Source of the DNA: an uncultured Planctomycetia bacterium
GTDB lineage: Bacteria; Omnitrophota; Gorgyraeia; 2-01-FULL-45-10; JAHFGN01
Direction of reading: 5' to 3'
Length of the DNA: 64,000 nucleotides
Assembly: GCA_964354545.1 (NCBI GenBank)
Contig: CAYHAE010000001.1
Span: 65,190-129,189 of the forward strand
The position numbers were made by a program, and so were the translations under genes. This document shows, piece by piece, positions 12,199 through 33,068 of the stretch. The first letter of the stretch is position 1, and every line of letters starts with the position of its first letter. Under the pieces are notes generated by a model that saw nothing but the letters and a program-made list of their open reading frames with translations, was not told the DNA's origin and did no database searches.

Positions 12199-12264
12199 GT
12201 GGGTGAAAAATTTGCTGCACACGAGATCGGGATGCCGTTCAAATCGTACCGACTGTTTTTTCTA

Positions 12265-12385: not shown

Positions 12386-12415
12386 CGCACTTAATTCCTG
12401 TATCAAGGAGATGCA

Positions 12416-13840: not shown

Positions 13841-13956
13841 CAAATTCACAAAGATCAGGATCTTTGTGAGAACCATATATCCTGAAAAGAAGACAAGGAG
13901 TATGTAATGCCCCCTTTGCTTTGGTTTTCCTGCTATCATGTGGTATATTTAGGGTG

Positions 13957-15550: not shown

Positions 15551-15560
15551 GGGATGATCA

Positions 15561-16469: not shown

Positions 16470-16832
16470 AAAGAGATTTTCATTTTGAAAAATAGCATTA
16501 TTGAGATGCTAGGGGGGCAGCTTCCGCAGGGGCAGGTCTCGTAGCCGTTAAGGACAAATAAAGATTTTTGTAAGAATTTTCCCTCTTTTACGTCTTCAGA
16601 TGATGGGACGGAGAAGGGGGGATTTTTATGGTTATGCGATATCTACCGTCAAGTCTCGAATTAAGATGCAGAACAGGTTTGAGATTGCGAAACAGAGTAT
16701 TTCGAAATATAATATGCTTGGTTGTATCATTTTCGATTTCAATCTCCAAGCTGTCCCTAGTCTCATCTTCAAAGCGTACAGGGGCATATTGAATCGTAAT
16801 TTCCCAAACGCACAGTCCTATATTAGAGAACA

Positions 16833-18905
16833 ATGAATATTTTTACCATTTCTTCAGCTTTAATTTTTGTAACATCTTTAACTTCCGTAGCATTCCTATT
16901 ATTTAAAGGTAAAGAAAAACTAAAATGGCTATGGCTTCTATTTTCTATCTCCGTTGGAAATTGGGGACTTGCGGGCTATAACATATCAACTGCGCATTCA
17001 AAAGATATTGCCTTCGTATGGTGGAAAATCGCATATATTAGTGTAATTTTTGCTCCCGCGATCTATACGCATTTTGTTTTCACTTTTCTAAATAGTACGA
17101 AAAAATCGCTTCTCATATTGTTAGACATCGCAGCCTTTTCTTTTTTTGGTTTTAATCTATTATTTCCCAAGTTGTTTATTGGCGATCTGCGCCTTGTTTC
17201 TAGACAATTTTGGTGGCCCGATTGGCTAAGTACTTGCAACATCGTGTTTTTAATTTTTTTTGTTGCTTTTTATTGTTTCGCGCTCAATTATAGCATTTTA
17301 TTAATGATAAAACAGTTTTCCACCTCAACAGGTAGAAAGCGAAATCAGGCAAGATATTTTTTAATTGCAGCGATTTTTGGATGGGGCGGCGTTATGCCGC
17401 TTTTTTTGAATGTATTTTCGCATATTGACATTTATCCTTATAGTAATTTTTTGACATCAATTTACCCACTCATTGTCACCTACGCCATCATCCGCCATCG
17501 GCTGATGGACATCGAAGTCATCATAAAGAAGACCCTCATATTTGCGGGGTTATTCTCGGCGGCTTATGCGGTCTTCGCTTCTTTTGCCCTCTTGGGGCAG
17601 CTTGTCTTCGAGCGGTTCGTGACAGCCAACAGATGGGTCGCAATGCTCCCGAGCGTGGTAGTTGTCATCGCCATGTTCCGTCCTCTCGAGAAACTCCTGG
17701 TTGCTGTTACTGACAGGTACCTCTTCCAGAAGCGGTACGATGCCAAAGAGCTTCTCAAGATCTTCACCGAGGAGGTCCTTTTAGTCCTTGATATAGAGAA
17801 ACTTGCCGCCCTCACCATGAAAAAGCTCAACGAGACGATGAAGCTAACCACCTGCGCGCTCCTCCTCAAGGACGACGCGGCAGGAGACTTCGTATGCGCC
17901 TCGCCTCCTCCGGCAAACAAGGTGAGCTTATCCCGCGCAAGCGGCCTCGCCGTATCGCTGGAGAGATCGTCCTCTTTCATCTTGCGTACACATAGTGCGA
18001 GGATACCGGATACTGTAGCGAGCGACATGACACATCTCCGCGCAGAGCTCGCCATCCCCCTTCTCCTTCGCGGAAATCTCATCGGCATCCTCGCCCTCGG
18101 CAGGAAGATGTCAGATGAGGACTATGGCCAGGACGACTTGGACATACTTCTTCCTCTCGCGCAGACTCTCGCCATTGCCATCTCGAACGCGAAACTCTTC
18201 GACGAGCTCTCGAAGACCCAGGCAGAGGCAGCGCAGAAGGAGAAGATGGCGATGGTCGGAACCCTCGCCGCAGGCATGGCCCACGAGATAAGGAACCCCA
18301 TCACCACCATTAAGATATTCTCAGAATTCCTCAAGGAGAAGAAGGACGACCCCTCCTTCATCGAGAAGTTCGAGCGCCTCGTTCCAAGGGAGGTGGAGAA
18401 GATAAACCACATGATCACCCACCTCCTCGAGTTCTCAAGGCCCGCAGATTCCGCAGCAATGGAAGAAGTAGACCTCCATGAAGCCCTCAAGGACACGCTC
18501 GAGGTCCTCGGCCACGAGATGGTCTTACATGACATCGTCCTTAAAGAGGAGATAAGCGCTCTGCCTCCAGTATGGGGCAACCGGAAGCATCTCGAGGAGG
18601 TCCTCTTCAACCTCCTCCAGAACGCCATCCATGCCATAGGGAGGCGAGGTACCATCACCGTCACTGCGAAGGAGAGGGCAGGCTCAGTCGAGCTTGCCAT
18701 CCGCGACACCGGCTGCGGCATCCCCCAAAACGTCCTCCCCCACATATTCGAGCCCTTCTTCACCACCAAGATAGACACAAAAGGAGTAGGCCTTGGGCTC
18801 TATGTAGTCAAACAGCTCATGGTGAGGATGGACGGCTCTGTATCAGTCGAGAGTGAAGTAGGGAAGGGGACGACGTTCAGGCTGGTGTTCGCAAGGGCCA
18901 CATAA
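16833..18905 (+). CDS. sensor histidine kinase paralog 2 (7TM, GAF, HisKA, HATPase_c)
   Basis: Same architecture as 9222-11357, with the motifs LMDIEVIIKKT and GMAHEIRNP. Confidence 0.8.
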   Translation: MNIFTISSALIFVTSLTSVAFLLFKGKEKLKWLWLLFSISVGNWGLAGYNISTAHSKDIAFVWWKIAYISVIFAPAIYTHFVFTFLNSTKKSLLILLDIAAFSFFGFNLLFPKLFIGDLRLVSRQFWWPDWLSTCNIVFLIFFVAFYCFALNYSILLMIKQFSTSTGRKRNQARYFLIAAIFGWGGVMPLFLNVFSHIDIYPYSNFLTSIYPLIVTYAIIRHRLMDIEVIIKKTLIFAGLFSAAYAVFASFALLGQLVFERFVTANRWVAMLPSVVVVIAMFRPLEKLLVAVTDRYLFQKRYDAKELLKIFTEEVLLVLDIEKLAALTMKKLNETMKLTTCALLLKDDAAGDFVCASPPPANKVSLSRASGLAVSLERSSSFILRTHSARIPDTVASDMTHLRAELAIPLLLRGNLIGILALGRKMSDEDYGQDDLDILLPLAQTLAIAISNAKLFDELSKTQAEAAQKEKMAMVGTLAAGMAHEIRNPITTIKIFSEFLKEKKDDPSFIEKFERLVPREVEKINHMITHLLEFSRPADSAAMEEVDLHEALKDTLEVLGHEMVLHDIVLKEEISALPPVWGNRKHLEEVLFNLLQNAIHAIGRRGTITVTAKERAGSVELAIRDTGCGIPQNVLPHIFEPFFTTKIDTKGVGLGLYVVKQLMVRMDGSVSVESEVGKGTTFRLVFARAT
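18120..18905. repeat. about 0.8-kb segment near-identical to 20377-21162 (HK catalytic half)
   Basis: The encoded C-terminal roughly 260 aa of HK2 and HK3 are nearly identical. Minus-strand ORFs 18122-18778 and 20379-21035 translate almost identically. Confidence 0.8.
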
Positions 18906-19014
18906 CGTCATTGCGAACGAAGTGAAGCAATCCCGTTTTTAGAGAGTGCGAAGCCTCCCCGTAAGGGGATTGCTTCGTCGGGAGATAGTTGCGCGCTATC
19001 CTCCTCGCAATGAC
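18906..19014. repeat. palindromic intergenic element (GTCATTGCGA...GAAGCAATCCC...GGGATTGCTTC...TCGCAATGAC), copy A
   Basis: Nested inverted repeats read directly. Related copies are at 24136-24235 and 56286-56345, with a degenerate copy at 21164-21195. Confidence 0.6.
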
Positions 19015-19080
19015 ACATACAGGTTAAATCGTGATTTCCCAAACGGTACAGTTTTAACTGTACAAGCAGGCTAACCTAAT

Positions 19081-21162
19081 ATGACCCCGATAGATTATTT
19101 TTATAAAGGGTTGCCATTAGCAGTAGGCACTTTCGCGTTGACACTAGGCGTTATTGCAATAAAGTATAGTGCAAAACGTTTATTGAGTCGTTTGTTAGCG
19201 CTTATTTGTCTTGGGGGAGTGTTATGGTTATATCCAGCCTTTATCATGTACATATTTCCAAAACAACCCTTGGTTGTGATATGGTCTTCGAAAGTCGTTT
19301 ATATTGGAGTAACGTTTATCGTAGTTTTCTATGCACATTTTACCTCTAAATTCTTGGGCTTAAAAAATAGGCTTTTTTTGATTATAGTCTATAGTCTCGG
19401 GATTATCTTTATTTTGATGTCAGTATTTACTAATAACATTATAGATGGATTCTACATATATTTTTGGGGAGCGTACCCCAAAGCCGGATCTCTATTTTCG
19501 TTCTATTGGTTTTATGCGCTTAGTTGTTTTGCCTATTGTTTGGTACGCCTTTATCAGGCTAGCTATGGTGTTCTTACTTCCACATATAGTAGTACTGAAC
19601 GGAATAGGATTAAGCATGTTTTTTGGGCGTATCTTCTGGGGAATTTCGGTGCATTTGATTTCATTCCAAGCTACGGTTTTGAATCTTATCCATTTGGTTG
19701 CTTCAATATCGCCATATTTATATCAGTTTTAGCATATGCGATTATCCGCCACCAGCTTCTTGACATCGAAGTCATCATCAAAAAGACCCTTGTCTTCGCA
19801 GGGCTCTTTGCCGCAGTGTACATAGTCTTCGCCTCGTTCGCGCTCATCGGGCAGGTCTTCTTTGAACGGTTCATTACTGCTAATAGGTGGATCTCGACGA
19901 TCCCGAGCGTCATCGTCGTCACCTTCATCTTCCGCCCCCTCGAGAAGCTCCTCATCACCGCGAGCGACAGGTTCCTCTTTCAGAAGAAGTACGACTACAA
20001 GGAGCTCCTCAGGACGTTCACGACAGAAGTCCTCACGGTGCTCGACACCGCGGAGCTCGCCTCGCTCACCGTAAAGAAGCTCTGCGACATCATAAAGCTC
20101 GCCTCGTGCGCGATGCTCCTCAAAGACGAGGCGCAGGGCGAATGTAAGGTCGTATCCTCGCAAGGACTTGCCACAGGGTCGATCGCGCTTGCGAAAGAGA
20201 GCGAGCTCTGCGAAGTATTAGAGAAGACTCATTCCTATGTCATGGCAGCGGGCGATACAGTAAGCCCTGCGCTGCAAGAGGAGATGCGCGTCTTGGGCGC
20301 AGAGCTCATCATACCGCTTATCCTCCACACTAAGCTCATCGGCGTCTTATCGCTTGGGAAAAAGAAATCAGACGAACCCTATACCCAGGACGACCTCGAC
20401 ATCCTTCTGCCTCTCTCGCGGCCCCTCGCCATTGCCATCTCGAACGCGAAACTCTTCGACGAGCTCTCGAAGACGCAGGCAGAGGCGGCGCAGAGGGAGA
20501 AGATGGCTGTCCTCGGCACCCTCGCCGCAGGCATGGCCCATGAGATAAGGAACCCCATCACCACAATCAAGATATTCTCAGAGTTCCTCAAAGAGAAGAA
20601 GGACGACCCCTCCTTCATCGAGAAGTTCGAGAGGCTTGTTCCTAAAGAGGTAGAGAAGATAAACCACATGATCACCCACCTCCTCGAGTTCTCAAGGCCC
20701 GCAGATTCCGCAGCAATGGAAGAAGTAGACCTCCATGAAGCCCTCAAGGACACGCTCGAGGTCCTCGGCCACGAGATGGTCTTACATGACATCGTCCTTA
20801 AAGAGGAGATAAGCGCTCTGCCTCCAGTATGGGGCAACCGGAAGCATCTCGAGGAGGTCCTCTTCAACCTCCTCCAGAACGCCATCCATGCCATAGGGAG
20901 GCGAGGTACCATCACCGTCACTGCGAAGGAGAGGGCAGGCTCAGTCGAGCTTGCCATCCGCGACACCGGCTGCGGCATCCCCCAAAACGTCCTCCCCCAC
21001 ATATTCGAGCCCTTCTTCACCACCAAGATAGACACAAAAGGAGTAGGCCTTGGGCTCTATGTAGTCAAACAGCTCATGGTGAGGATGGACGGCTCTGTAT
21101 CAGTCGAGAGTGAGGCAGGGAAGGGGACGACGTTCAGGCTGGTGTTTGTGACGGCCACATAA
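19081..21162 (+). CDS. sensor histidine kinase paralog 3 (7TM, GAF, HisKA, HATPase_c)
   Basis: Same architecture as HK2. The catalytic half is near-identical to HK2. Confidence 0.8.
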   Translation: MTPIDYFYKGLPLAVGTFALTLGVIAIKYSAKRLLSRLLALICLGGVLWLYPAFIMYIFPKQPLVVIWSSKVVYIGVTFIVVFYAHFTSKFLGLKNRLFLIIVYSLGIIFILMSVFTNNIIDGFYIYFWGAYPKAGSLFSFYWFYALSCFAYCLVRLYQASYGVLTSTYSSTERNRIKHVFWAYLLGNFGAFDFIPSYGFESYPFGCFNIAIFISVLAYAIIRHQLLDIEVIIKKTLVFAGLFAAVYIVFASFALIGQVFFERFITANRWISTIPSVIVVTFIFRPLEKLLITASDRFLFQKKYDYKELLRTFTTEVLTVLDTAELASLTVKKLCDIIKLASCAMLLKDEAQGECKVVSSQGLATGSIALAKESELCEVLEKTHSYVMAAGDTVSPALQEEMRVLGAELIIPLILHTKLIGVLSLGKKKSDEPYTQDDLDILLPLSRPLAIAISNAKLFDELSKTQAEAAQREKMAVLGTLAAGMAHEIRNPITTIKIFSEFLKEKKDDPSFIEKFERLVPKEVEKINHMITHLLEFSRPADSAAMEEVDLHEALKDTLEVLGHEMVLHDIVLKEEISALPPVWGNRKHLEEVLFNLLQNAIHAIGRRGTITVTAKERAGSVELAIRDTGCGIPQNVLPHIFEPFFTTKIDTKGVGLGLYVVKQLMVRMDGSVSVESEAGKGTTFRLVFVTAT
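20377..21162. repeat. second copy of the 0.8-kb duplicated HK catalytic segment
   Basis: See 18120-18905. Confidence 0.8.
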
Positions 21163-21305
21163 CCTCATTGACAGGAAGGCGTTCCCGCAATGACGGAGAT
21201 TTCATGTAAAGCAGCCATCTGCTCCAACGTAACGGGTATTTGACAAGCGCATGATCATCGTGTATACTTGTTTCAGTAAGTAATCATAAACATAGACTAG
21301 CTGAA

Positions 21306-21914
21306 ATGAACTTCAAAGAACTCTATAAAGTTGTAGAGAAGAATAGATATTATGTATTTTCGTTCGAAGACCTGCTCTCTTTTTTCCCACACGAGAGAAG
21401 GGCGACGCTCAAGGAGTCGGTCTATAGATGGAAGATGAAAGGATGGATCTACCCTCTCAAAAAAGGGCTTTACGAGCTAACCTATCCCAAAGATTTCGAT
21501 ATCCCCGATATGTATATTGCCAATAGGCTATATGGCCCTTCTTACATCTCATTGGAAACAGCGCTTTCGAATTGCAGCATTATTCCGGAAGTATCGATGG
21601 CGGTCACTTCCATAACCACAAAACCGACGCGGAAGTTCAAGAATAAGCACGGGCTTTTCATCTATCATACTGTGAAGCCCGCCTCATTTACAGGATACTA
21701 TGTCGAGAGACAGGGTGCTTTTGATATTCTCATTGCCGAACCGGAAAAAGCGCTCATAGATTTTCTATATTTTAATGCATACCGCGACAAAAAGTTTGAC
21801 CTCAAAGACGAACGGCTGGACAGAGGAGTCGTTTCGCGGCTTAATAAGAAGAAACTGCATCGCTACGCCGCCCTCTATAACATCGATCTAAAAGGACTCC
21901 ATGCTTACCTATGA
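21306..21914 (+). CDS. AbiEi-type antitoxin/transcriptional regulator (type IV TA / abortive infection)
   Basis: About 200 aa with an N-terminal winged-helix-like region. The gene overlaps the AbiEii-like gene by 14 nt. Confidence 0.55.
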   Translation: MNFKELYKVVEKNRYYVFSFEDLLSFFPHERRATLKESVYRWKMKGWIYPLKKGLYELTYPKDFDIPDMYIANRLYGPSYISLETALSNCSIIPEVSMAVTSITTKPTRKFKNKHGLFIYHTVKPASFTGYYVERQGAFDILIAEPEKALIDFLYFNAYRDKKFDLKDERLDRGVVSRLNKKKLHRYAALYNIDLKGLHAYL

Positions 21915-22704
21915 TGCGTTGAAAGCGTACGCTCGATCGAGAGGGATGCCACCGACGAAGATGAGAGGTGTTTTACGGGAGTACCTCCAGGTTCTTATAT
22001 TGAAGGAGATGTATAAAACCGGAGCCGGGAAAAAACTCTATTTCACAGGAGGAACCTACCTGCGGCTTGCCCATAACCTTAAGAGGTTTTCCGAAGACCT
22101 CGATTTTAATACAGCCGGCATAAGGAAGAATGAGTTCGAGGATCTGATCGGCAGAATAAAAGTAGAATTGAAAAGGATAAATATGGAATCCCGGATGCGA
22201 TTTGACCACTGGGACAACATATACGCAGCCCGTCTCATTTTTCCAACCATCGAGGGGGCCTACGGCATAGTGTCGGGCTATTCAAAAAAAGAAGGGATAA
22301 TAATAAAAATCGAGACAAATCGTCCGCGATGGAGAATAAAAAAGGAGACTCATGTCGTATCGGGGTTTGGCGAATTTTACCCATGCATATGCACGGATAA
22401 GGGCGCATTATTTGCGGATAAAATAGATGCGCTCGGCAAAAAGGCGCGCGGCAGGCATGTGTACGATGTAATGTTTATGCTCGCGAATCGCGTTCCCGTC
22501 GACAGGCGTGTTTTGTCATCCTTTGGTATAGATGACGACCCTTTGGATGCGATCGAGAGGAGGATCATGAGTTTCTCGAAGCAGGAGTTGAAAAAGCAGG
22601 CAGAGACCCTGAGGCCTTTTTTGTTCGAGGAAAGCGAGGCGGACTTCGTTGTCAACGCACACACTATTATTCCATCGCTCCTGGAAAAATACAGGAGAAG
22701 ATGA
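21901..22704 (+). CDS. AbiEii/AbiGii-family nucleotidyltransferase toxin
   Basis: Motif YFTGGTYLRL...RFSEDLDFN is characteristic of the DUF1814/AbiEii NTase. Confidence 0.65.
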   Translation: MLTYDALKAYARSRGMPPTKMRGVLREYLQVLILKEMYKTGAGKKLYFTGGTYLRLAHNLKRFSEDLDFNTAGIRKNEFEDLIGRIKVELKRINMESRMRFDHWDNIYAARLIFPTIEGAYGIVSGYSKKEGIIIKIETNRPRWRIKKETHVVSGFGEFYPCICTDKGALFADKIDALGKKARGRHVYDVMFMLANRVPVDRRVLSSFGIDDDPLDAIERRIMSFSKQELKKQAETLRPFLFEESEADFVVNAHTIIPSLLEKYRRR

Positions 22705-22778: not shown

Positions 22779-23168
22779 CTAACTGTGAAACAATCGCAGA
22801 ATGCGTGGGCGCGTGAGGTAAAACACTAAGAGGATGTGATAGAGGATAGAGGAAGCATTTTTTATACCCGTCGGTATATAGGTGAACACCTCGCCTGAGA
22901 AATGGAGAAGATTCATGAATATCAGTATCTTTGTAAGGACTATGTACCCGGAGAAGAAGACGAGCAGAGCCCTCGCCCAGTCCCTGTAATTGAGGAGGCC
23001 GACGCCGAGGATGGCAGACGTGACCGCTGATGCGAGGACAAAGGTGAAGACATTGAACGGCTTCGTCGACAGAGAGAGGACCGAATGGATGATGAGGCTC
23101 GCGAGCGTCGCAAGGCCGATGAATATCTCTATAAGCGCTATCGCCTTCACTGCGAGGCGGTCGTTCAT
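22779..23168 (-). CDS. small polytopic membrane protein, unknown function
   Basis: Three to four predicted TM helices. It overlaps the upstream receiver gene by 4 nt, so the two are probably co-transcribed. Confidence 0.45.
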   Translation of the reverse strand: MNDRLAVKAIALIEIFIGLATLASLIIHSVLSLSTKPFNVFTFVLASAVTSAILGVGLLNYRDWARALLVFFSGYIVLTKILIFMNLLHFSGEVFTYIPTGIKNASSILYHILLVFYLTRPRILRLFHS

Positions 23169-23527
23169 CTCTCCTCCGTGAGTTTTTTGACCGCCTTTAC
23201 GATGTCGGCACGCTCGAAGGGTTTTACGATATAATCGGACGCGCCTGCGCTCACTGCCTCTTGTGCAGTCTCTACGCTTTTGTAGCCGCTCGTAACCAAG
23301 ATCTTAATATTCGGCCGTATCGTTTTCAGCTCCCGCATCGTCTCGATCCCATCCATCCGAGGCATCTTTATATCCATTATCACAATATCAACAGGCGCTT
23401 TCTTCATGATATCTATGGCTTCCTTGCCTCTTGTTGCAAATGAAAGCTCATACTCTTTTTCGAGGATCAATTTTAAAGATTCCCTGATGCCTTCTTCATC
23501 GTCGCAAATGAGGATTCGTTTCTTCAT
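23165..23527 (-). CDS. single-domain response regulator (CheY-like receiver)
   Basis: Motifs ICDDEE and VIMDIKMPRMDG. Confidence 0.8.
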   Translation of the reverse strand: MKKRILICDDEEGIRESLKLILEKEYELSFATRGKEAIDIMKKAPVDIVIMDIKMPRMDGIETMRELKTIRPNIKILVTSGYKSVETAQEAVSAGASDYIVKPFERADIVKAVKKLTEER

Positions 23528-23568
23528 GGAGCTCTCCTGGTTACAATTGCGATTAAGATTCCCACGCC

Positions 23569-24120
23569 CTACAGCATAGGCGGGCTTACGACGCAGATAA
23601 GACGCGCCTCAGACGTCCCTACATTTTTGAAATAGTGTGATACTGATGAGTCGAAGTAGAGCGTATCGCCTTTGTTTAAGGTATAATTCTTGGCACCAAT
23701 CACGACCTCGACTTTTCCGGTAACGACATACACGAACTTCTCCACACCCTTCTTGTTCTCTTCCGTATGGGTAACGCCCTTAGGTTCGAGTCTGACCATG
23801 ATCGGCATCATCTTTTTATCCAGGACCTTCGGCGTCAGCATCTCTGATATCGACTTGTTGTCGTGGACAAAAATGTCTGTCCTCTCGGATGCCGTCTGAA
23901 TAATGGGATTGCTTTGGGAAGGGGAGAGGTCCTGATAGAGCTCAGGGAGCGTAATACCAAGGGCAGCGCAGATCGCCGTGTGTGATTCCAGCGTACCCGT
24001 CATCTTATTGTTTTCTATACGGCTTAACGTCGCGAGCGCAACACCCGATTCCCTTGAGAGCTCAAGGAGGGTGAGCCCTTTTTGTTTGCGTAAGTTACGA
24101 ATTCGTTCTCCGATCTTCAT
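23569..24120 (-). CDS. XRE-family HTH transcriptional regulator with C-terminal cupin domain
   Basis: N-terminal IRNLRKQKGLTLLELSRESGVALATLSRIE HTH. The C-terminal half has a cupin-like beta-barrel pattern. Confidence 0.75.
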   Translation of the reverse strand: MKIGERIRNLRKQKGLTLLELSRESGVALATLSRIENNKMTGTLESHTAICAALGITLPELYQDLSPSQSNPIIQTASERTDIFVHDNKSISEMLTPKVLDKKMMPIMVRLEPKGVTHTEENKKGVEKFVYVVTGKVEVVIGAKNYTLNKGDTLYFDSSVSHYFKNVGTSEARLICVVSPPML

Positions 24121-24135
24121 TGTCTACCCCTTGCT

Positions 24136-24235
24136 GTCATTGCGAGCGCCCCTGAGCGAAGCGAAAGGGGAGCGAAGCAATCCCGCTTTTAGAGGTTGCT
24201 TCGTCAGTTACTTGAGCAGCCTCCTCGCAATGACA
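24136..24235. repeat. palindromic intergenic element, copy B
   Basis: GTCATTGCGAG...GCGAAGCAATCCCGC...CTCGCAATGAC read directly. Confidence 0.6.
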
Positions 24236-24410
24236 ATCAAAACAAGTATAACTCAAGTTTCGTAATTTGTCAATAAAATTTGATTTTTATGGAAAATGTT
24301 TAAGGTGCCATAAAAAGCCAGGTTTGTCCAAAACAGGGTGATACCCTCGGAAACTTTTGCTATTTGAGGTAGTTAGGAATATAAAACTTGATAAATCTTC
24401 AAATTTATCC

Positions 24411-24439
24411 TTGACAAAAAGTGAAATATATGTTATGCT
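24411..24439 (+). promoter_or_regulatory. sigma70-like promoter (TTGACA, 17 nt spacer, TATGCT) for the giant gene
   Basis: Consensus hexamers read directly. Confidence 0.45.
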
Positions 24440-24452
24440 TTAGTCGGTAGTT

Positions 24453-24677
24453 GAAAAGAGCAGGGCTGACCATCGCGATGTGTGAGAACAGTGGATGCGC
24501 ACGATTTAAAGCCCCAGGCAGCGAGTGGTCCTGCGAAAAATAAAAGAGATGGTCAGCTCATTTCGCGGGACTCTCCTCTCTGGGGTTCTTTTTTTGTTTC
24601 GCGCCGCTTGGCCAGGCCGTCTCGCAAGAGCCGCCTGGCCGTTTTATTTTTGTAGTGAGCTGATCAATGAGGCTGCC
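24453..24677 (+). promoter_or_regulatory. structured 5' leader with long-range inverted repeat and terminator-like hairpin plus T-run
   Basis: GCTGACCATC at 24465-74 pairs with GATGGTCAGC at 24548-57. Hairpin GGCCAGGC...GCCTGGCC at 24609-39 is followed by GTTTTATTTTT, immediately before the ATG at 24678. Confidence 0.4.
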
Positions 24678-27600
24678 ATGGACAGAATGAGGTTTTTCCC
24701 TTTGACCAAAATCATCTCGATAGCGCTCGTCTTTACCCTGCTTAATCAGCAGATACTTTTTGCCGCGGATTACTCCTACGGGATTCCGGTCGAAAACGAA
24801 AAGAACCGCTCAGGCTTTATGTCCGTGGATGAGCTGGATAAGGCCCAGCGTCGCCAAGAGGAGCTTATAGCGAGGCTCCAGGCATCTCTTGATAGTAAGC
24901 TCTCAGGAGGCGTGGGGGATGAAAGTGAGTGGACGCTCCAAAGGAAGAGCGGAACCTCATCCGAAGGGCAGGACTCTGCGGTCACGCCATCGGCACAAGA
25001 CCAGACAGTGCCTCTTGAGGTTTCTCAAGCGGAGATCACCGTGACGACCGCAGCAGGTGATCATATCGCATATTCCGGTGGTGCGATCGCGCGGATCGAG
25101 CAACCGAACGGCACTATCATCGAAGATGTCGTACTGACGCCTACAGGCGAACTTGAACGTGGGCTCATCCGATTCGTGGACGGCGGCGTGCTTACGATAG
25201 AGGGGGGACGGGCATGCTCGTATTTGGGTCCAGACGGTACCGCTACCCACTATCGTCAGGATGGGCTGGTCGATTCGGAAGTCACACCTGACGGCCTTGT
25301 ATCATATTACTCATACCTCTTTGATGACGCAGGGTCGATTGCGCGAACGACTATAACCAGGCCCGAGGAGATCATCGAGTACGACGAATCAGGTAGGCTC
25401 TCGAAGGTCACAAAGCTTGATGGCACGGAGATCGGGTATGAGAACGGCATAATCTCTCAGATGACGAAAGGAGACGGGTCGAAGTATGTCTTTGGCAGGA
25501 TATTGAACGGTCCTGATATAGAGGTAAAAATCGTTACCTATTTTAATAATTCAGGGTACCGGGTTGACTTCGACAGCGTATACAACGTGGTCTCGGTTAC
25601 ATCGCCCTCCGGTTCTTTCACGAAATACGGACATGATCGCACGCCGCTCTACACGCGAAAAGACAATGCGTTGATTGCATACGACAACACCGGCCAGATA
25701 GCATATGCGATCTGCGGCGTTACTGGCTTTGATGGCACATACCGGCAAGGCCAGGATGGATATATAGCGGTCCCGCTCGCGACCATTGACGAGCTTGCGC
25801 GCGCTATAGAAGATCTAGATAGTGCGGCACGGGCTCTCGCAGATGCCGAAGATGCATGCGCAAAACGGCAACTCGAGCTTACCGAAGCAATGCAGTTTTC
25901 AGCACAGACCTTCCAAGCATATCAGGAAGCGGACACTTCGGCCCAGCAGGCCGAGACTGCGCGGCGCGCAGCTGAAGCAGCTCTTATGAGTACACTCGTT
26001 GACGTAGAAACACAATTCGCGTACGGAGACGACGTTACGGAGATTGAGGACCAGAAGGTCGTGTTGAGAGAACAATTTGGGATCTTCAATACGACCCTTT
26101 GGTACAGGACAAGTTCGGCGTACGCACAATGTACTTCGGGCAGACTCTTCCTTTGCGGGACAGGCACCGACACGCGAGCCCATGTCCATTATCAAAAGAC
26201 ATTCGGCGAATACACATTTGCCCGGATGGGATTCGACTTCAAAGTCGATTCGCTCACCGGATCTTTTAAGGCAGGACTTCAATCCGCGTCTTCGAGTACC
26301 TCCTTCGGGAACTCGCTTCAGACAGCATGCATCGAGGTCCGCGAAGGCAAGATCTGTATTGACATTGTCCAGGGCCAGCTTGAGAACCAGCCGACGGCGG
26401 TACTGTTACCGAAGGTCAATACGGACTACTCATGCCTATTTGAGTTGAAGAACGGGTATTTAAATATCTATGTCTGGGAGAAGGAAGAAGTAAGGCCTGC
26501 GGAGGCGCTCTATTCATTTCGTACGCAAAACTGGCCCGGCCTGCGGCCCTTTTTTGAAGTCCGCTCGGGATGTGCATGGGTGGGCAATGTTATGTTGCAC
26601 GCGCCGCTTGATGATCGGATATATGATGTAAAATCGCAGCTCGCAGGACGAATGTCGTATCACGACGATTATGCCACAAGATATGAGTATAGACAGGCTG
26701 GCACATCAACGCTAACTGATCTCGATACATTCAATCGGTTGACCAGACTCTGGGAATCAGGCAGCAGTGTAACATCCGGTCGGGCAAATGTCAGTTTGAG
26801 CGGACTCCGAATGAGGTCGTATCTGCCGCGAACGATTGACCAGACCTATTCGTTCGATTTTGCTCTTGGTACAGTTTATTCAAATGCACGGGCAGGGCTC
26901 GAAGGGAAGGAGGCCACAGGAAACGGATATCTCAGGTTTGTCGTGCAATCAGGTAGATTGTCGGTTGTGACTGTGTGCAACGACCACGAAAAAACAGTGG
27001 CGGTTTCACCGGAGCAGTTTCTGCCTCTCCAGCAGTACACCGCTCAATTTGAGGTAAAGGCAGGCGCTATAGACGTCTACGTATGGAGAAAAGGGGATGA
27101 CCGGCCAGCTATTCCGCTATACAGCTTCACAGATCCTTCATGGAGCGCCCTGCGGTTCTACGCGAAAACAGACAGCGGTCGCTTTGTCATCGATGAATTC
27201 TCCCGTACACAAACATGCGGCGCAACCGGCCAGGAAGCGGATACTGTGGTTGCGCACCTGCGCGATATGTTCGACGCTGAGCGATCGGCGATCGTAAACC
27301 GCGAGGATGCTCGCGGTCGCTATGAGGCAGCTCTCACACAAGAGGGGCAGGCTAAAGATGCACTCACTATCGCGGAGAATGGGCACGCATCTGCGCTTAC
27401 GCAAGAAGAGCAGGCGCTGCATGCTCTGGAAGGTATTAACGGCGCCTTGAATGTGCCAAGGGTTATCCCCGATCAGCCTCTTTTCTACGAGACCTGCGAT
27501 CGCGTGATCCAAGACATGCCGGCAGTTGTGCTATATATAAATGAGAATTTCGCGTCCGAGGCCGGGATTTCCTACGTCACATATTGGCAGAATGGTCTCC

Positions 27601-30600
27601 CGAAAGAGGCGTGCAAGTTCGACGGCTCGACCGTGACCTTCGATGAAGAAGGCGCGCTCCTCTCGTTCAAGGGCCAGATCATCGATGCTTCGTACGCAAG
27701 CATCCTCGGGCCTTGCAAGTCTGTTACGGGGGAAAAAGTCGTTAGGGATGGGCTGACGCGGATCTATGACGCCCGCGGAAAGCTCTCCGCGCTGATGACC
27801 GGCGAAAATACTCACATCGAATATCGCGAGAATGAGATCGTTTCGATCGCGACCGGGGATGGTGTCAAGCGTCTCTACGAAGCTGGTACGCTGACAGAAC
27901 TGATCGATAAGGACGGGGCGACCTTCTCGTTCGACGCGTCTGGAAAGGCAGTGAGGTCGGTAGACCGTTTCGGGAACGTCTACGATTACGCATATGGGTA
28001 CGATCCCGTCGACGGAGAGGAGACGGTGATCATCTTCGAGGAGACCACGGGCCTCAGGCGGTTCTATAAGAGCGGGGTTCTCTACCATACAGAAGACCTT
28101 GCAGGGGTTACCTCTGACAATCTTTATGATGCGGACGGACGGCTCACCGAGGTGCTTATAAAGAATTATGATACCGTGGTCGGCCGATATTCGTACACAT
28201 ATCTTGATAGCGGAAAGACCGGCGTTAGTGATCTCCTCGGCAACACGAGAACCTATGCCTGTGACGGGAGACTGGAAACCTTGGTCGACAAAGATAACAA
28301 TGTCTTCCAATACACCTATCCGGATTCCGTGACGACCCGGTTGGATTGGGTGCCGTACGAGGCGCAACAGGCGCCGGCAGCAGATTTTGTGATCGCGCAG
28401 GAATTCGTGAACGATGCTCTTCGTAAAGTCGTCAGGGCAGATGGAACAGTAACGACCTATCGGGTTGGTGGAGACCTCGATTCTATACAGGAGGGAAGCG
28501 GGAAGACCATCATTCAGTATCTCTACGATGAAGCGGGAGAGCTTGAAGGTGTAGATCTCAGGGGAAGCCGCGAAGACCTATCGCGAGCCGTACAAGATGC
28601 GCGCACTGAGATCGAGGCGGAAAAGAATAATACCATTAAAAAGATTGAGACTCAAAGAGATAGTGCGTTGTCAAATATATTTAACCAATATGTTCCACAA
28701 TTTCTTGCTCTATTCAATCAACTATCTACGCTTTCCGATCAATTGAGTGCATTGACAGGCCATAGTTATGGCATTTTTTTCGAAGTCACCATCGCTCAGC
28801 ATATAGCGGGTTTGGATCCGGCAGATCCAAACATTCCCATAATAAAAAGTCTCGTGCAGCAACTACAGGATGTAAATAATCAGCAACTTGCGCTTCTTGC
28901 GCAGAAGGCTGCAGAGCAAAAACCGATCGAAGACGAGGCGACGCGGCAAATTGCCGAGATAGAGCGTCAGGCAGATCAAGAGGTCGCAAAGATCGATGCC
29001 CAAATTGGGCTACTCTCACTAGATATATCGAGGAGAGAAGGAGCCGCCTTCGTCCTTTACTATCACCGAAAGATACTTGGCAGAGACCTTAGCAGACCAG
29101 AAGCGGATGCCTGGGTATCACAACTGTCGGCAGACAAGCAGAAATTCACCCGTGAGGAGGTCGTAGGAACGATACTCTCTTCGGCAGAATATGCCGACCG
29201 GAAGGCATGGGTTGCGTCTATTAAGAAGTCAGTTCGCCATGCGCTCGAGGGATATCTGTTGATGACAGAGCAGGAAAAGGACACGTTCCTGGTTATGCTC
29301 GGCCTCTCTCGACAGGATGCGGCACGACTCAATCGTTATGATGTCGAAAAGATCCTCTCCTGGATCGATTCTCAGGGACTCCATTTCGGGCAATCGGCAT
29401 TCCTCGCGCTCAAGAACGTACTCGAAGCGAACGGCGTGGTGTGCGATCTTGAGGATCTTGCGATAAATGCCATCCTTATCGATATACTATCCGGCGCGAT
29501 CGATTCGCTCGCAAAGGGCGATCTCGCGCTTTCTATGTTCGCGCTGAGTACCTGTGCAAGAACCAAGGGCGTAGCGCTCTTCAATGCGAAACTCATATGG
29601 GAAGATATTGCCCAGCTTCCGTCGCCCAGGTTCATTGCGCTCGTCGATGGCAATCACTATATCGTCGTCACCGGCGTCGAAGGTGATGAGGTCTATTACA
29701 GGGAAGAGAACAGAGGGCCAGCCGGTACCGACGAGGTGATGACGAAAGACGAATTCATTAAGACGTGGTCGGGATATGCGATTGTAGTACAGGCCAAAGG
29801 TCTTTCTCTTACTGAACCCATCCCGGAACCTATCGCGTCGAAACTGATAACTTCCCAAGAAGCTCGCGCTGTTAAGGGTGCCTGTATAGGTCTCTTTGTT
29901 GCATTCGTCATTTGGGCCGTCTCGGCCGTCCTTACGGTTGTTGCGACTGTCGCATCAGTGATAGCGACAATCGTAACAACTGTGGTGAGTGCAATCGCTG
30001 CGGTTGTGTCGCAGTTCGCGACCGTAATTACCGCGCTTGGTGCGAAGCTTGTAAGTGGTATTTCCACGGCGTTTACAGGGATCGGGCAAATGATAGGCAG
30101 TGTGGCAGGGGCTTCCATTGCGAGCATGGCCACTGCCGCGTTGAAGACGGTGGCGAGCATTGGTTTGAGCTTTGGCATCTCAGCGGGTTTGAAAGCGCTC
30201 GGTGTCAACACAACCATTACAAATCTGACGAGTGCGTTTCTTACGGGAGGGATCCTTGGCCTGATCAATCCTGTTGCAGGTATAAGCATGCTAGGATCGT
30301 TTATGATGGAAGGGATGAAATATGCCACGATTGCCGGCATCAATGAAGCCGGCGTTGCGCTCAGGCTCGACCCGGCCATCACGAACCTCATGGCGATCAC
30401 CTCAGGGGCCCTCGTCGGCGGCGTCTGGCGCGGCAACATTGGACAAACTCTCGTTACCATCGCGCCGAGCGTCGCATCCGAGGCCGCATATATAGGTATG
30501 CAGAGCGTTGGCAACCTCCTCGGCATCGATCCGCGGATATCCTACCTTGCAGGAGTGGGTATTAGAAGCACCCTAAATGCGGGCCTGACCCACGACTTTA

Positions 30601-33068
30601 TGCCAGATGTTATCTGGGGTGGGGTGCAGAGTGGGCTGCTACGGGGGATTACCTCAATAGGCATTAACTATGCTACTCAGGAATTGGGCATAAACCCGTT
30701 TATTGCCAACCTGTCGGCTGCTGCCATGGCAGGTGGCATAGAAGGCCTGTTAGAAGGCAGGAATCCCATAGAAGGCATATTTGACACTTATTTTAGAGCA
30801 GGAATAGGCCTATTGACGCTAGGGGGCGATGGAGGCAATAATCCATGGCTTAGAGCTGCTTATATATCCCAAGTATTAGATTTTAGTCAAATTATACAGG
30901 AAAGGGGTATAGTTAATGCGCTTGATACATATGCAACAGGCTTCTTACACCAACAGACGATTAATGAGATATGGAAGCAAGGAGGCATTGCCGAATTGCT
31001 TACAAAACCCAATCAGATTGAAATAACGACCAATAATAAAGGCGAAGTTGTGAAGCGAATATACACAATGGTGATTAATTCGAATTCCGATAAACTTATA
31101 AGTAACTATATAGACCTGTCACCTACCTACGATATGCTTGTCGGATACAGAGAGGGCAATATTATCACCCATTGTGAATTCGTGATTGGTCCAGATGGCA
31201 GACCTCAATTGAAGAATGGCGAAAAGGAGATTCTTGGTTCAGACGGTTCAAAGAAAGTAGACTATGTTGAAAACTTTAACCTAACAAAGAGAGATATTAT
31301 TGATCCAAGTGGCAATAAGACAGGTTATTATATCCCAGTCGAAGGAACAAACTCCATTATAATTGGAGAAAATGACCAGATAATAAGTGGTAAATTCGTG
31401 TCTTTGGTGAGCAACTATAATATAACATCTAAAGATGGCTCTCTATATGACTATACAGGGTCAGAATTGATAGGTATAGATAGTTATTTTCTTGAAGATT
31501 ATCTTGGATTGGACGAAGACGATGATTTACAGCTTGATGATATCTCGATTAACATCAGTAAATTAGATTTAGGATATGATGTATCAGTAGGGTTAGTTGA
31601 TCCTACCAAGCAAAGCGATTTAGACGCGCTTAGTGCTGTATACAAGGTAGCCTCATTTATAAAAGATACATATTTACCCGCTGGCTTTATTACAAGTGAA
31701 GACCTTAATTTGGATGGATATGGTTATATAGAGCACTCTTATGGTAACAATGTCTATGCTGTTATTGACATAGGGAGTGGCTATAAACCAGTAGAAATGA
31801 ATTATAATGGATTACACTTAATAGGGGATAGAGACAAGGTTGGCATCGGGCAGAGTCTAAATCCAAATGGTTATACGAGCGTTATTAATGGAGAAGTGCG
31901 ATACGATATAGATGCAAATACATATTTAACAGCCAGAATTGATAATGGCTTACCGACATCTATCAAATATAATGGTTCTACCGATATGGTTCAATATGAA
32001 GGTTCATATTTTACAGATGGAACGTTAGATAGTGGTGAGTTATTAATAGCAGGACGGGATGTTATTATAATTCAAGACGGAATTCCTACTTTGAGGTATA
32101 ATGTAAACAATCCGAGCGGTTCGCTTACAAGTATTGACTGCGAGGGGTTAATATCGCTTTTTACAAATATACAAATACAGAAAGGTCAGGTTAGCTTACC
32201 CGGTATTTACAACGCTCTTATGAATTCACCGGAAGCAGATTTTACAGCATATGCAAATGAAATATTTAATGCTCGAAACCTGTTAAGCTCAGATGGCATG
32301 CTTTCGTATAATGAGGCAATAGCTATTTATTGTAATAGCGAAAATGCCATGAATGCCGAAGAGTTTCTGAATATATCTAAATTATATTATACATTGAGAG
32401 ACCCAGTAGCCGTTTACCTAAATCAATTCTTCCATCAAGTAACTGATGAAGTCAGAACAAAATTTGACGATTCTTATGCACAACTATCCGGATATAACTC
32501 TTTAGATGGCTTCTCTTATATTATGGAGAGCGGTTCCAAAACAGCGGGCATAGGTCAAATTAACAAAGACGGCCTAAGGGTTTATTCTATTATAGGAGTA
32601 AGTGCAAATATGAGCGAAAAGATATTCAACCCCTATGTGAAATTTTTTGTTAATTTTACAACAAATAATGAAGTAACCGATATGCTTCAACCTTTAGTCG
32701 ATTATAAAACTATACCCGGTATAAATCACGCTTATCAGCCCGAAGATATTTTCCGCAATCCAACAAGTGATAAGCAGGTGTGGAATGTCGAATTTGATGA
32801 CATTGAAGTTAATTCTACATTATCACCAGTAAAGGATTATATGCATGTTGACTATGCACGAAATACAGACCATCCTTATCATGAGATTTTTGTTGCATTA
32901 TCAGCGGCTGCTGAAATTGCAGTGTATGATGGCGGAGAAACATTCAAGTCAATTATTATGAAAGCAAAAGGATTTACCGATGGCAGCTCTCTAAATCAAT
33001 ATCTTCAACAGAATGGTAGGAAAATAGACATAGGTATCGATGACAATGATAGATGGAAGCAGAATTAG
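24678..33068 (+). CDS. giant secreted YD-repeat (Rhs-like) protein (2797 aa) with signal peptide, an internal tandem roughly 250-aa duplication, a coiled coil, a papain/C39-like region, a Gly/Ala/Ser-rich hydrophobic region and a compositionally distinct C-terminal region
   Basis: Signal peptide MDRMRFFPLTKIISIALVFTLL. YD-type repeats are present (YDESGRL, YDNTGQI, YDARGKL, YDADGRL, YxYLDSGKTG). Duplicated modules are NIYVWEKEEVRPAEALYSF and DVYVWRKGDDRPAIPLYSF. A DGNHYIVVTGV motif is present. The last roughly 2.2 kb are AT-rich. Confidence 0.75.
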   Translation: MDRMRFFPLTKIISIALVFTLLNQQILFAADYSYGIPVENEKNRSGFMSVDELDKAQRRQEELIARLQASLDSKLSGGVGDESEWTLQRKSGTSSEGQDSAVTPSAQDQTVPLEVSQAEITVTTAAGDHIAYSGGAIARIEQPNGTIIEDVVLTPTGELERGLIRFVDGGVLTIEGGRACSYLGPDGTATHYRQDGLVDSEVTPDGLVSYYSYLFDDAGSIARTTITRPEEIIEYDESGRLSKVTKLDGTEIGYENGIISQMTKGDGSKYVFGRILNGPDIEVKIVTYFNNSGYRVDFDSVYNVVSVTSPSGSFTKYGHDRTPLYTRKDNALIAYDNTGQIAYAICGVTGFDGTYRQGQDGYIAVPLATIDELARAIEDLDSAARALADAEDACAKRQLELTEAMQFSAQTFQAYQEADTSAQQAETARRAAEAALMSTLVDVETQFAYGDDVTEIEDQKVVLREQFGIFNTTLWYRTSSAYAQCTSGRLFLCGTGTDTRAHVHYQKTFGEYTFARMGFDFKVDSLTGSFKAGLQSASSSTSFGNSLQTACIEVREGKICIDIVQGQLENQPTAVLLPKVNTDYSCLFELKNGYLNIYVWEKEEVRPAEALYSFRTQNWPGLRPFFEVRSGCAWVGNVMLHAPLDDRIYDVKSQLAGRMSYHDDYATRYEYRQAGTSTLTDLDTFNRLTRLWESGSSVTSGRANVSLSGLRMRSYLPRTIDQTYSFDFALGTVYSNARAGLEGKEATGNGYLRFVVQSGRLSVVTVCNDHEKTVAVSPEQFLPLQQYTAQFEVKAGAIDVYVWRKGDDRPAIPLYSFTDPSWSALRFYAKTDSGRFVIDEFSRTQTCGATGQEADTVVAHLRDMFDAERSAIVNREDARGRYEAALTQEGQAKDALTIAENGHASALTQEEQALHALEGINGALNVPRVIPDQPLFYETCDRVIQDMPAVVLYINENFASEAGISYVTYWQNGLPKEACKFDGSTVTFDEEGALLSFKGQIIDASYASILGPCKSVTGEKVVRDGLTRIYDARGKLSALMTGENTHIEYRENEIVSIATGDGVKRLYEAGTLTELIDKDGATFSFDASGKAVRSVDRFGNVYDYAYGYDPVDGEETVIIFEETTGLRRFYKSGVLYHTEDLAGVTSDNLYDADGRLTEVLIKNYDTVVGRYSYTYLDSGKTGVSDLLGNTRTYACDGRLETLVDKDNNVFQYTYPDSVTTRLDWVPYEAQQAPAADFVIAQEFVNDALRKVVRADGTVTTYRVGGDLDSIQEGSGKTIIQYLYDEAGELEGVDLRGSREDLSRAVQDARTEIEAEKNNTIKKIETQRDSALSNIFNQYVPQFLALFNQLSTLSDQLSALTGHSYGIFFEVTIAQHIAGLDPADPNIPIIKSLVQQLQDVNNQQLALLAQKAAEQKPIEDEATRQIAEIERQADQEVAKIDAQIGLLSLDISRREGAAFVLYYHRKILGRDLSRPEADAWVSQLSADKQKFTREEVVGTILSSAEYADRKAWVASIKKSVRHALEGYLLMTEQEKDTFLVMLGLSRQDAARLNRYDVEKILSWIDSQGLHFGQSAFLALKNVLEANGVVCDLEDLAINAILIDILSGAIDSLAKGDLALSMFALSTCARTKGVALFNAKLIWEDIAQLPSPRFIALVDGNHYIVVTGVEGDEVYYREENRGPAGTDEVMTKDEFIKTWSGYAIVVQAKGLSLTEPIPEPIASKLITSQEARAVKGACIGLFVAFVIWAVSAVLTVVATVASVIATIVTTVVSAIAAVVSQFATVITALGAKLVSGISTAFTGIGQMIGSVAGASIASMATAALKTVASIGLSFGISAGLKALGVNTTITNLTSAFLTGGILGLINPVAGISMLGSFMMEGMKYATIAGINEAGVALRLDPAITNLMAITSGALVGGVWRGNIGQTLVTIAPSVASEAAYIGMQSVGNLLGIDPRISYLAGVGIRSTLNAGLTHDFMPDVIWGGVQSGLLRGITSIGINYATQELGINPFIANLSAAAMAGGIEGLLEGRNPIEGIFDTYFRAGIGLLTLGGDGGNNPWLRAAYISQVLDFSQIIQERGIVNALDTYATGFLHQQTINEIWKQGGIAELLTKPNQIEITTNNKGEVVKRIYTMVINSNSDKLISNYIDLSPTYDMLVGYREGNIITHCEFVIGPDGRPQLKNGEKEILGSDGSKKVDYVENFNLTKRDIIDPSGNKTGYYIPVEGTNSIIIGENDQIISGKFVSLVSNYNITSKDGSLYDYTGSELIGIDSYFLEDYLGLDEDDDLQLDDISINISKLDLGYDVSVGLVDPTKQSDLDALSAVYKVASFIKDTYLPAGFITSEDLNLDGYGYIEHSYGNNVYAVIDIGSGYKPVEMNYNGLHLIGDRDKVGIGQSLNPNGYTSVINGEVRYDIDANTYLTARIDNGLPTSIKYNGSTDMVQYEGSYFTDGTLDSGELLIAGRDVIIIQDGIPTLRYNVNNPSGSLTSIDCEGLISLFTNIQIQKGQVSLPGIYNALMNSPEADFTAYANEIFNARNLLSSDGMLSYNEAIAIYCNSENAMNAEEFLNISKLYYTLRDPVAVYLNQFFHQVTDEVRTKFDDSYAQLSGYNSLDGFSYIMESGSKTAGIGQINKDGLRVYSIIGVSANMSEKIFNPYVKFFVNFTTNNEVTDMLQPLVDYKTIPGINHAYQPEDIFRNPTSDKQVWNVEFDDIEVNSTLSPVKDYMHVDYARNTDHPYHEIFVALSAAAEIAVYDGGETFKSIIMKAKGFTDGSSLNQYLQQNGRKIDIGIDDNDRWKQN

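Follow-up and report, generated by a model that had tools for sequence, protein, structure and literature searches.

What decides whether a bacterium transcribes a gene of 8.4 kb? The question is raised by a 64,000-nucleotide (nt) stretch of Omnitrophota DNA (contig CAYHAE010000001.1, positions 65,190 to 129,189; the whole stretch is called the window below, and positions are those of the window), in which a giant gene is preceded by a leader of about 230 bases. In the uncultured Omnitrophota, giant genes are believed to serve in attaching to other cells or attacking them; the literature on these genes, as far as it could be searched, contains no mention of their regulation. The leader described here is a real, structured and selected RNA motif, apparently undescribed and built of familiar parts. 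We hold, with moderate confidence, that the region from position 24446 to the gene is a cis-regulatory leader RNA, namely an attenuator that is lineage-specific to an Omnitrophota giant surface-protein gene.

Anatomy of the leader

A preliminary description of the locus had proposed an attenuator- or riboswitch-like leader from three elements: a promoter, a 10-nt perfect inverted repeat, and a GC-rich hairpin with a T-run ahead of the start codon. All three are present (Table 1), and transcription is predicted to start at about position 24446. Both arms of the repeat (24465-74 with 24548-57) are invariant in three other lineages, and as RNA the repeat extends to a 12-bp helix with one G-U pair, formed by segments A and B (24463-74 with 24548-59). 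On its own the repeat is weak evidence, as 2.2% of 2000 dinucleotide-shuffled leaders also contained a perfect inverted repeat of at least 10 nt.

The preliminary description included neither the hairpin H1 with its run of seven U residues (U7), nor segment C, nor conservation at other loci. H1 consists of a lower stem (RCCCCAGR/UCUGGGGU), a variable middle and an upper stem (GCGAAA/UUUCGC, with UUUCGY across four loci), which closes an apical loop of 22 nt (24539-24560) whose four-locus sequence is AUAAAAGNGAUGGUCAGCUCN. The U7 run, UUCUUUUUUUGUUU, comes straight after the hairpin. When the growing RNA was folded prefix by prefix, A:B was the minimum-free-energy structure until the 3' arm of H1 emerged. 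Since B sits in the apical loop, A:B and H1 may coexist as a pseudoknot; and because the 3' arm of the 10-nt repeat therefore lies in the H1 loop, the repeat is not obviously an antiterminator. What stands of the preliminary proposal is a selected, structured 5' leader with intrinsic-terminator signals; its core recurs in three other lineages. The loop can also pair with segment C, beside the Shine-Dalgarno (SD) sequence, through 11 bp that include one G-U (24550-60 with 24656-66). Local folding gave inconsistent pictures across three loci of whether C sequesters the SD.

The hairpin of the preliminary description is called T2 here. It encloses a GCAA-capped inner stem, folds at -22.9 kcal/mol and is followed by G and UUUUAUUUUU (24641-51), a tract that ends 26 nt before the ATG at 24678. 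Both T2 and H1 (with U7) fit the sequence definition of an intrinsic terminator, the stem of H1 being unusually long. With a U-tract behind each hairpin and C next to the SD, the leader also has the parts of an expression platform. T2 ranks among the strongest terminator-like sites of the window, and the sites comparable to it lie at gene ends and downstream of the window's cobalamin riboswitch. This genome uses canonical terminators made of a hairpin and a U-tract, and the signals of the leader are therefore likely to be read.

The ATG at 24678 is taken as the true start of the giant gene because the N-terminus aligns from that methionine with proteins P0003 and P0004 and with locus L001. The frame is open for 51 codons 5' of this ATG, across H1, T1 and T2 (24525-24677), and the open reading frame (ORF) finder calls a GTG at 24525.

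Relatives of the leader and covariation

In the protein collection the giant protein had almost no homologues, and these gave the distant loci L001, L076 and L077. A protein search with the XRE-cupin regulator, which is encoded divergently from the giant gene, returned closer homologues (97% to 66% identity), and through the regulator the core of the leader was found in three independent loci: L200 (76% regulator identity), L203 (71%) and L211 (66%). By nhmmer, the window matched L200 from the promoter through the start codon (E = 1e-42) and L203 through the end of H1 (E = 8e-19). Each of the three leaders is divergent from an XRE-cupin regulator, and the gene downstream is a homologue of the giant gene, with 52% identity in L200, a weaker match in L203 and a signal-peptide motif in L211. 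The P0013 locus, where a regulator-receiver pair is divergent from a 3467-amino-acid gene with a different C-terminal peptidase domain, probably holds a fifth copy of the leader; locus L212, reached through P0016, differs in gene order and lacks the motif.

The preliminary description had recognised no known riboswitch consensus, and this held. At the gathering threshold, the sole Rfam match in the whole window was a cobalamin riboswitch, with none for the leader, and Rfam 15 at permissive E-values, run on 24100-24800, matched the leader only at E > 5, driven by the terminators; as the models tested gave no meaningful match, the leader stands outside every Rfam family. The cobalamin riboswitch itself (RF00174, 53752-53962, 68 bits) is followed by a terminator at 54007-54030 (region 53752-54040) and by a TonB-dependent receptor gene (54035-56128); the organism thus uses terminator-coupled riboswitches.

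No second copy of the leader was found in the window by self-search with blastn and nhmmer. A scan for XRE-cupin genes in a one-genome-per-species collection, which did not include the source genome, gave 74 loci, none with the leader, and a protein-pattern scan of metagenomes of the Joint Genome Institute (JGI) gave no relatives. The DNA pattern used on the metagenomes, GCTGACCATC-N60-90-GATGGTCAGC, for which the invariant 26-nt loop block would have been the better choice, occurred at no fewer than 120 loci (at least 120), none leader-like among the matches listed; most of these matches were chance occurrences in GC-rich coding DNA, 77 of 120 falling in one length class modulo 3. About 14 of the metagenome contigs listed (L081, L091, L107, L121, L129 and others) carry an unrelated 99-nt near-perfect palindrome, GGCTGACCATCCGAATGGCG...CGCCATTCGGATGGTCAGCC, which represents one conserved locus in both contig orientations and has only its terminal 11-mer in common with segment A. 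Viral contigs contained no match to the loop block, and plasmids none to the leader.

Conservation among the four loci is confined to particular parts of the leader. The exact conserved block of the motif is ATAAAAGNGATGGTCAGCTCNTTTCG, segment A reads (G/A)(G/A)GCUGACCAUC, and the 18-mer AAAAGAGATGGTCAGCTC is identical in the window, L200 and L203, with GCG for GAG in L211. Mean pairwise identity is 86% in A, 88% and 100% in the 5' and 3' strands of the lower stem of H1, and 90% in the loop, where 19 of 22 columns are invariant; it is 23% and 41% in the 5' and 3' strands of the H1 middle and 35% in the linker (2 of 36 columns invariant). H1 nevertheless folds at -29.7 to -33.8 kcal/mol in L200, L203 and L211, despite their different middles. 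A conserved core amid a diverged linker and middle is the pattern to be expected of a structured RNA.

The same figures bear on the proposal that A and B are the terminal repeats of a small inverted-repeat element and the whole a functionless relic or a chance structure. With a separation of about 95 nt, A and B do form terminal inverted repeats of 12 bp; the intergenic DNA of this genome abounds in other palindromic repeats, and distant homologues of the gene lack the leader. A relic would hardly hold the same position in four lineages with a linker 35% and a loop 90% identical, nor acquire compensatory changes in H1. Moreover, a covariance model run over the window and 92 loci (93 sources in all) turned up no other copies, so that there is one copy per locus and none elsewhere, which does not fit a miniature inverted-repeat transposable element or palindromic repeat; we find this proposal scarcely credible.

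With the alignment fitted to the structure and only four sequences in it, which tempers the pair counts, all 11 counted pairs of A:B are standard in all four lineages, with a single change from G-U to A-U, and 4 of the 23 modelled pairs of H1 show compensatory changes. Standard pairs occupy 94% of 136 pair cells, against 38-51% when the partners were slid, and the covariation score was above those of all 500 shuffles. We regard the covariation evidence as supportive, short of conclusive.

Segment C reads GGGCUGAUCG in L200 and GAGCUGGCCC in L203, with the consensus GAGCUGAYC, adjoining the ribosome-binding site (RBS), in three of the four loci. Its internal differences are all transitions opposite U or G of B, so that 9-11 bp are retained, and no position opposite C or A of B has changed. 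This is easier to reconcile with RNA pairing than with a DNA site bound by protein, and it is one reason why A, B and C are most improbable as regulator-binding DNA sites downstream of the promoter. The operator proposal could appeal to the invariance of the sites where RNA helices might covary, to five copies of GCTGAYC type in two promoter-proximal regions, and to the adjoining gene for a DNA-binding regulator. It would have to accommodate an A-B spacing that varies from about 65 to 80 nt and variable positions of A/C type that fall exactly opposite U or G of B; it leaves the compensatory changes in H1 unexplained, and a true palindrome at the -35 element in all loci is a much better operator candidate.

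The conserved bases lie in different reading frames in the window and in L211, so their conservation does not come from coding. Attenuation by a leader peptide, read from the AUG inside B (24549; MVSSFR...), is extremely unlikely. The string AUG GUC AGC UCN UUU CGY is conserved with its two variable bases at synonymous third positions, and its frame runs on through the 3' arm of H1, but loop closure and the choice between G-C and G-U pairing explain those bases equally well. There is no SD at a usable distance (AAGAG abuts the AUG); the product would, according to locus, have 6, 26 or 33 codons or be continuous with the giant ORF, and so falls outside the leader-peptide class; and the conservation of A would have no explanation. 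Other small ORFs of the leader (30 amino acids from a TTG, 57 amino acids from a GTG, and MRTI) were rejected as having no SD or lying too near the transcription start.

The terminator signals are distributed unevenly. In the window, H1 is followed by a U-tract and T2 is present; L200 has no U-tract after H1 and has T2, as a homologous hairpin with its U-tract; L203 has a U-tract after H1 and no T2; and in L211 the tract after H1 is weaker and T2 is missing. All four leaders thus place at least one hairpin with a U-rich run between promoter and gene, that of L211 being weak. Conservation of the terminator hairpin in related loci, one of the points on which the preliminary description had made its proposal depend, is mixed: T2 is kept in L200 and absent from L203 and L211, and the hairpin found in all four is H1.

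This distribution could also be read as processive antitermination, with A and H1 acting as a signal that lets the polymerase pass T1, T2 and intragenic terminators, after the manner of put of phage HK022 and EAR of the Bacillus eps operon. Two terminators stand in tandem with no conserved antiterminator for T2, L200 retains H1 without its own U-tract, and the genes controlled by such leaders are 8-12 kb long, all of which would suit it. A U-tract after the conserved hairpin, seen in three of four loci, is needless for a put-like element; no Rfam antitermination RNA family was matched; and the window genes scanned include no NusG or LoaP-type gene and no antiterminator protein domain (ANTAR, CAT/RBD, NusG paralogue). 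We consider this mechanism very unlikely.

Table 1. Positions in the window of the leader, its promoter region, the flanking genes and the sites complementary to the H1 loop
Feature	Coordinates	Strand	Sequence and remarks
Upstream box	24372-86	+	GTTAGGAATATAAAA; kept in L200, L203 and L211 (four loci with the window)
Degenerate palindrome	24387-24404	+	CTTGATAAATCTTCAAAT; immediately 5' of the -35 element
Sigma-70-type promoter	24411-16 and 24434-39	+	TTGACA, 17-nt spacer, TATGCT; TG-extended -10; 10/12 in the promoter scan
Segment A	24463-24474	+	GGGCUGACCAUC; complementary to B
Variable linker	24475-24509	+	33-48 nt in four lineages
Hairpin H1	24510-24587	+	78 nt, about 25 bp, -37.3 kcal/mol
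Segment B	24548-24559	+	GAUGGUCAGCUC; within the H1 loop; loop block AUAAAAGNGAUGGUCAGCUCNUUUCG nearly invariant
U-rich tract	24588-24599	+	CUUUUUUUGUUU; directly 3' of H1; H1 and tract form the terminator-like signal T1
Hairpin T2	24609-24651	+	GGCCAGGC (24610-17) paired with GCCUGGCC (24633-40); -22.7 to -25.7 kcal/mol
Segment C	24657-24666	+	GAGCUGAUCA; complementary to B; 2 nt 5' of the SD
SD and start codon of the giant gene	24669-24680	+	GAGG 24669-72; ATG 24678
Giant gene	24678-33068	+	2796 amino acids; signal peptide, YD/RHS-like repeats, Peptidase_C39-like domain, multi-transmembrane region
Divergent operon	22779-24120	-	XRE-cupin regulator 23569-24120; CheY-like receiver 23165-23527; 129-amino-acid membrane protein 22779-23168
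B-complementary sites	47586-47620	+	AAGCUGACCAUCG (47586-98) and GAGCUGACCG (47611-20); 5' untranslated region of gene 47637-49214, near its SD 47627-32

A sister locus, a possible second target and the regulatory neighbourhood

Locus L206, from the Omnitrophota metagenome-assembled genome (MAG) GCA_974484985.1, has a regulator 69% identical to that of the window, a giant-gene homologue with 45% identity at the N-terminus, and the same promoter and operator. Its leader holds a cyclic di-GMP-I (c-di-GMP-I) riboswitch (RF01051; L206:3229-3340, minus strand; 46.8 bits against a gathering score of 35) before the giant-gene homologue. The 3' strands of the aptamer overlap the 5' arm of a terminator, and this layout is that of an ON switch. 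With a riboswitch at the equivalent position in L206, control of read-through is the natural reading of the leader in the window. Models of c-di-GMP-I and its variants and of c-di-GMP-II gave no match at E <= 10 in window 24100-24800, and the c-di-GMP models gave none at E <= 0.1 in L200, L203, L201 and L204. Differing leaders at one conserved position suggest functional replacement, by which a shared signal is not proven.

It is in this light that a more specific version of the attenuator must be weighed, in which the A:B-H1 pseudoknot is an aptamer for c-di-GMP or a related second messenger, in the place of the c-di-GMP-I riboswitch. Besides L206, it draws on the genes for HD-GYP (HD_5), receiver and GAF-kinase proteins around the leader loci (HD-GYP and receiver genes adjoin the L206 riboswitch), on a loop of about 26 nt that is nearly invariant, with an A-rich strand, on linkers of constant length (9 nt and 1 nt) flanking B, and on a terminator and an SD-proximal pairing, which are typical expression platforms. 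It has to contend with the lack of any Rfam riboswitch match, an interior of A:B that is not conserved, the invariance of helices expected to covary, a T2 that has no visible switch, and an H1 so stable that a ligand outcompeting it is hard to envisage. We judge a riboswitch unlikely, yet a serious candidate.

Within 9222-22704, the window encodes an AbiEii-type toxin-antitoxin pair (21306-22704) and several signalling proteins, which suggest a second-messenger context: a GAF-HD-GYP protein (12416-13840) and three paralogous histidine kinases with seven transmembrane segments and GAF domains (starting at 9222, 16833 and 19081).

The loop of H1 may also have a partner on a second messenger RNA. 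For the exact 10-mer GCTGACCATC, three occurrences in the window compare with 0.10 expected: A, the reverse complement of B, and a copy at 47588-97, in the 5' untranslated region (UTR) of a gene at 47637-49214 whose product is secreted and weakly BNR-like. In that UTR, GAGCUGACC follows 14 nt past the third copy, and the SD comes 7 nt further on. Loop B could pair with 47586-98 through 11 bp and with 47611-19 through 9 bp; among the distinct sites listed from 25,588 windows these rank 5th and 9th for loop duplex energy, or 4th and 8th once the loop's own antisense is left out. The UTR (47586-47639) also contains CCAUCG, which can pair with CGAUGG, abutting the SD and overlapping two of its G residues, so that binding of the loop could free the SD. 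In L004, L007 and L008 a 47637 homologue stands where the giant gene would be, divergent from the XRE-cupin gene, and both genes thus appear to stand in one regulatory circle. The two sites are possible trans targets of the H1 loop, and their complementarity suggests that a short terminated leader could act in trans. In L004 (2120-2200, minus strand), the gene of 47637 type has a leader with two similar hairpins, GGTGCC-GAACT-GGCACC and GGTGCC-AAATT-GACACC, which may be another lineage-specific regulatory leader.

These observations admit the proposal, compatible with attenuation, that promoter, H1 and T2 make a small RNA of 150-205 nt with loop B as its seed for sites of GAGCUGACC type near RBSs: its targets would be C of the giant gene and the two 47637 sites, A would mask the seed, and the giant gene would be expressed by leak-through only. 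A promoter, a stable hairpin and a U-tail (predicted U-tracts 24588-99 and 24642-51) are the layout of a small RNA gene, and the enrichment of GCTGACCATC with its third copy near an SD, the energy rank of both sites, the SD that binding could free and the exchange of the 47637 family for the giant gene as partner of the regulator all speak for it. Several random sites have similar duplex energy, however, and no contig from L200, L203 or L211 carries a 47637 homologue. There is no room after T2 for a separate giant-gene promoter, which means that read-through must matter, and all four loci keep the position directly before the giant gene. We judge a small RNA as the main product to be about as unlikely as the riboswitch. 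The explanations are not all mutually exclusive, and a composite can be formulated in which A, H1, B and C make up a new second-messenger riboswitch class, most plausibly for c-di-GMP, that replaced c-di-GMP-I and whose terminated form doubles as a small RNA on 47637; we think this composite decidedly improbable.

The promoter region is more widely shared than the leader. The promoter (TTGACA...GGTATRCT) aligns across L200, L203, L211, L206, L208, L001 and L008, and a palindrome TTTGAT-N5/6-ATCAAA stands at the equivalent position in L206, L208, L211, L001 and L004. Box and palindrome together (24372-24404), upstream of the giant-gene -35 element, have matching positions in L200, L203, L211, L206, L208, L001 and L004, and are probably the operator of the divergent XRE-cupin regulator. 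That regulator heads an operon with a receiver and a membrane protein, as the preliminary description had it; Pfam identifies HTH_3 and Cupin_2 in the regulator and Response_reg in the receiver, and finds no match for the hydrophobic 129-amino-acid protein. The regulator-receiver pair is divergent from giant-gene homologues in L200 (whose contig ends before the receiver gene), L203, L206, L208/209 and L211.

Two repeat elements were also seen. A palindromic element with 12-bp arms, TGTCATTGCGAG...CTCGCAATGACA, occurs in the window (24135-24235, 18907-19015, 21184-21194), in L001 (1-15) and in L198; one copy lies within the XRE-cupin 5' UTR and another between two histidine kinase genes, and its right arm also flanks the giant-gene promoter of L001. 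In L002 (2380-2500), about six tandem units of GATTACAGTGAT(AAAAG) lie upstream of an XRE-cupin homologue.

Proposed mechanism and comparison with known systems

In the attenuator model, transcription would start near 24446 from the conserved promoter, with the XRE-cupin regulator probably acting on the upstream palindrome. The 12-bp helix A:B would form first in the nascent RNA and the very stable H1 next, which with its U7 tract would act as a terminator; T2 would serve as a back-up for polymerases that escape. For most transcripts the outcome would then be a short RNA of about 150 or 205 nt, and a signal that prevents or bypasses the hairpins would admit polymerase to the giant gene. By analogy with the c-di-GMP-I riboswitch of L206, this signal would be expected to be of the ON type. 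In the read-through RNA, loop B could exchange A for C beside the SD, by which translation would be tuned. As the H1 loop can pair with an RBS-proximal segment and with a second messenger RNA, translational or trans effects are likely in addition to attenuation.

Several points weigh against this model. Transcription start, termination and read-through are each predicted, and the comparison covers four independent sequences, all of related lineages, in which A:B and the lower stem of H1 are invariant and hence carry no covariation. The region enclosed by A:B has no conserved aptamer-like fold. A conserved antiterminator for T2 was not found, the sole candidate being a pairing of 7 bp in the window and 4 bp in L200; and since L200 keeps H1 without a U-tract, H1 must do more than terminate. 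No segment C was found in L211, and there (498-660, minus strand) no ATG, GTG or TTG occurs between H1 and the signal peptide of the giant gene; the frame is already open from an AUG 5' of H1, so that H1 may be translated in that locus, or the contig may contain an error. The leader is also absent from the distant giant-gene loci L001, L076 and L077. L001 has a promoter of the same kind with a leader of only about 35 nt, and at L076:1106 and L077:2340 the start of the giant-gene homologue falls within the end of the preceding lgt gene, for prolipoprotein diacylglyceryl transferase, these two Omnitrophota MAGs having no intergenic leader at all. L208/209 has a different leader, of about 125 nt.

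What emerges is a regulatory module around costly giant genes, consisting of a promoter with a palindromic operator, a divergent XRE-cupin/receiver operon and one of several interchangeable RNA leaders, of which one is a c-di-GMP-I riboswitch and another the undescribed motif. Should the motif sense the same signal as the leader of L206, it would be a new riboswitch class and would tie giant-gene expression to c-di-GMP signalling. If the cis and trans pairings of the loop are both true, a compact leader would attenuate its own gene and regulate another. The hypothesis is open to testing in vitro, without cultivation of the organism.

In its working the leader is akin to terminator-coupled riboswitch leaders, and in part to loop-to-SD pseudoknot switches and riboswitch-derived small RNAs. 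Among known systems, put and EAR resemble the leader in being structured elements that head a very long transcription unit with downstream terminators; the leader has no similarity to those RNAs, and its hairpin usually has a U-tract of its own. Leader-derived small RNAs that act in trans include SreA and SreB of Listeria and RNAs of the EutX/Rli55 type. As in those cases, premature termination here would free a stable hairpin RNA, with a loop complementary to the RBS region of 47637; unlike theirs, the trans target of the leader is predicted only, from complementarity.

Pseudoknots between a loop and a downstream segment control ribosome access in riboswitches of the SAM-II and preQ1-II type and in the rpsO leader. 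The B:C pairing is similar in that a hairpin loop pairs directly 5' of the SD, with an A-rich strand adjoining the pairing segment. It differs in spanning 100 nt and one or two terminators, in having a rival upstream partner, A, and in leaving the SD outside the helix.

In ON riboswitches of the pbuE adenine type, aptamer and terminator have a strand in common. The leader is comparable in that the closing helix A:B comes first and encloses the terminator's 5' arm, so that co-transcriptional competition is possible. It departs from the pbuE type in that the stretch inside A:B is not conserved, a second terminator follows, and B is placed in the terminator's apical loop, so that the two structures need not be mutually exclusive.

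The leader may also be likened to c-di-GMP-I (GEMM-I, RF01051) RNAs, which precede surface and adhesion genes together with a terminator. Examples are the riboswitch of L206 and, in Bacillus thuringiensis, the Bc2 RNA that precedes the gene for the collagen adhesion protein (PMC4933901). The leader has no match to this class in sequence or structure: in GEMM-I two hairpins stand side by side, with a tetraloop and its receptor, whereas the leader is built around a single long hairpin whose conserved loop of 22 nt has two linear partners. What it has in common with c-di-GMP-I leaders is a structured element followed, some tens of nucleotides ahead of the start codon, by an intrinsic terminator, for which a default-off state would be expected; and with the L206 riboswitch it shares the same neighbourhood of promoter, operator, XRE-cupin regulator, receiver and giant secreted-protein gene.

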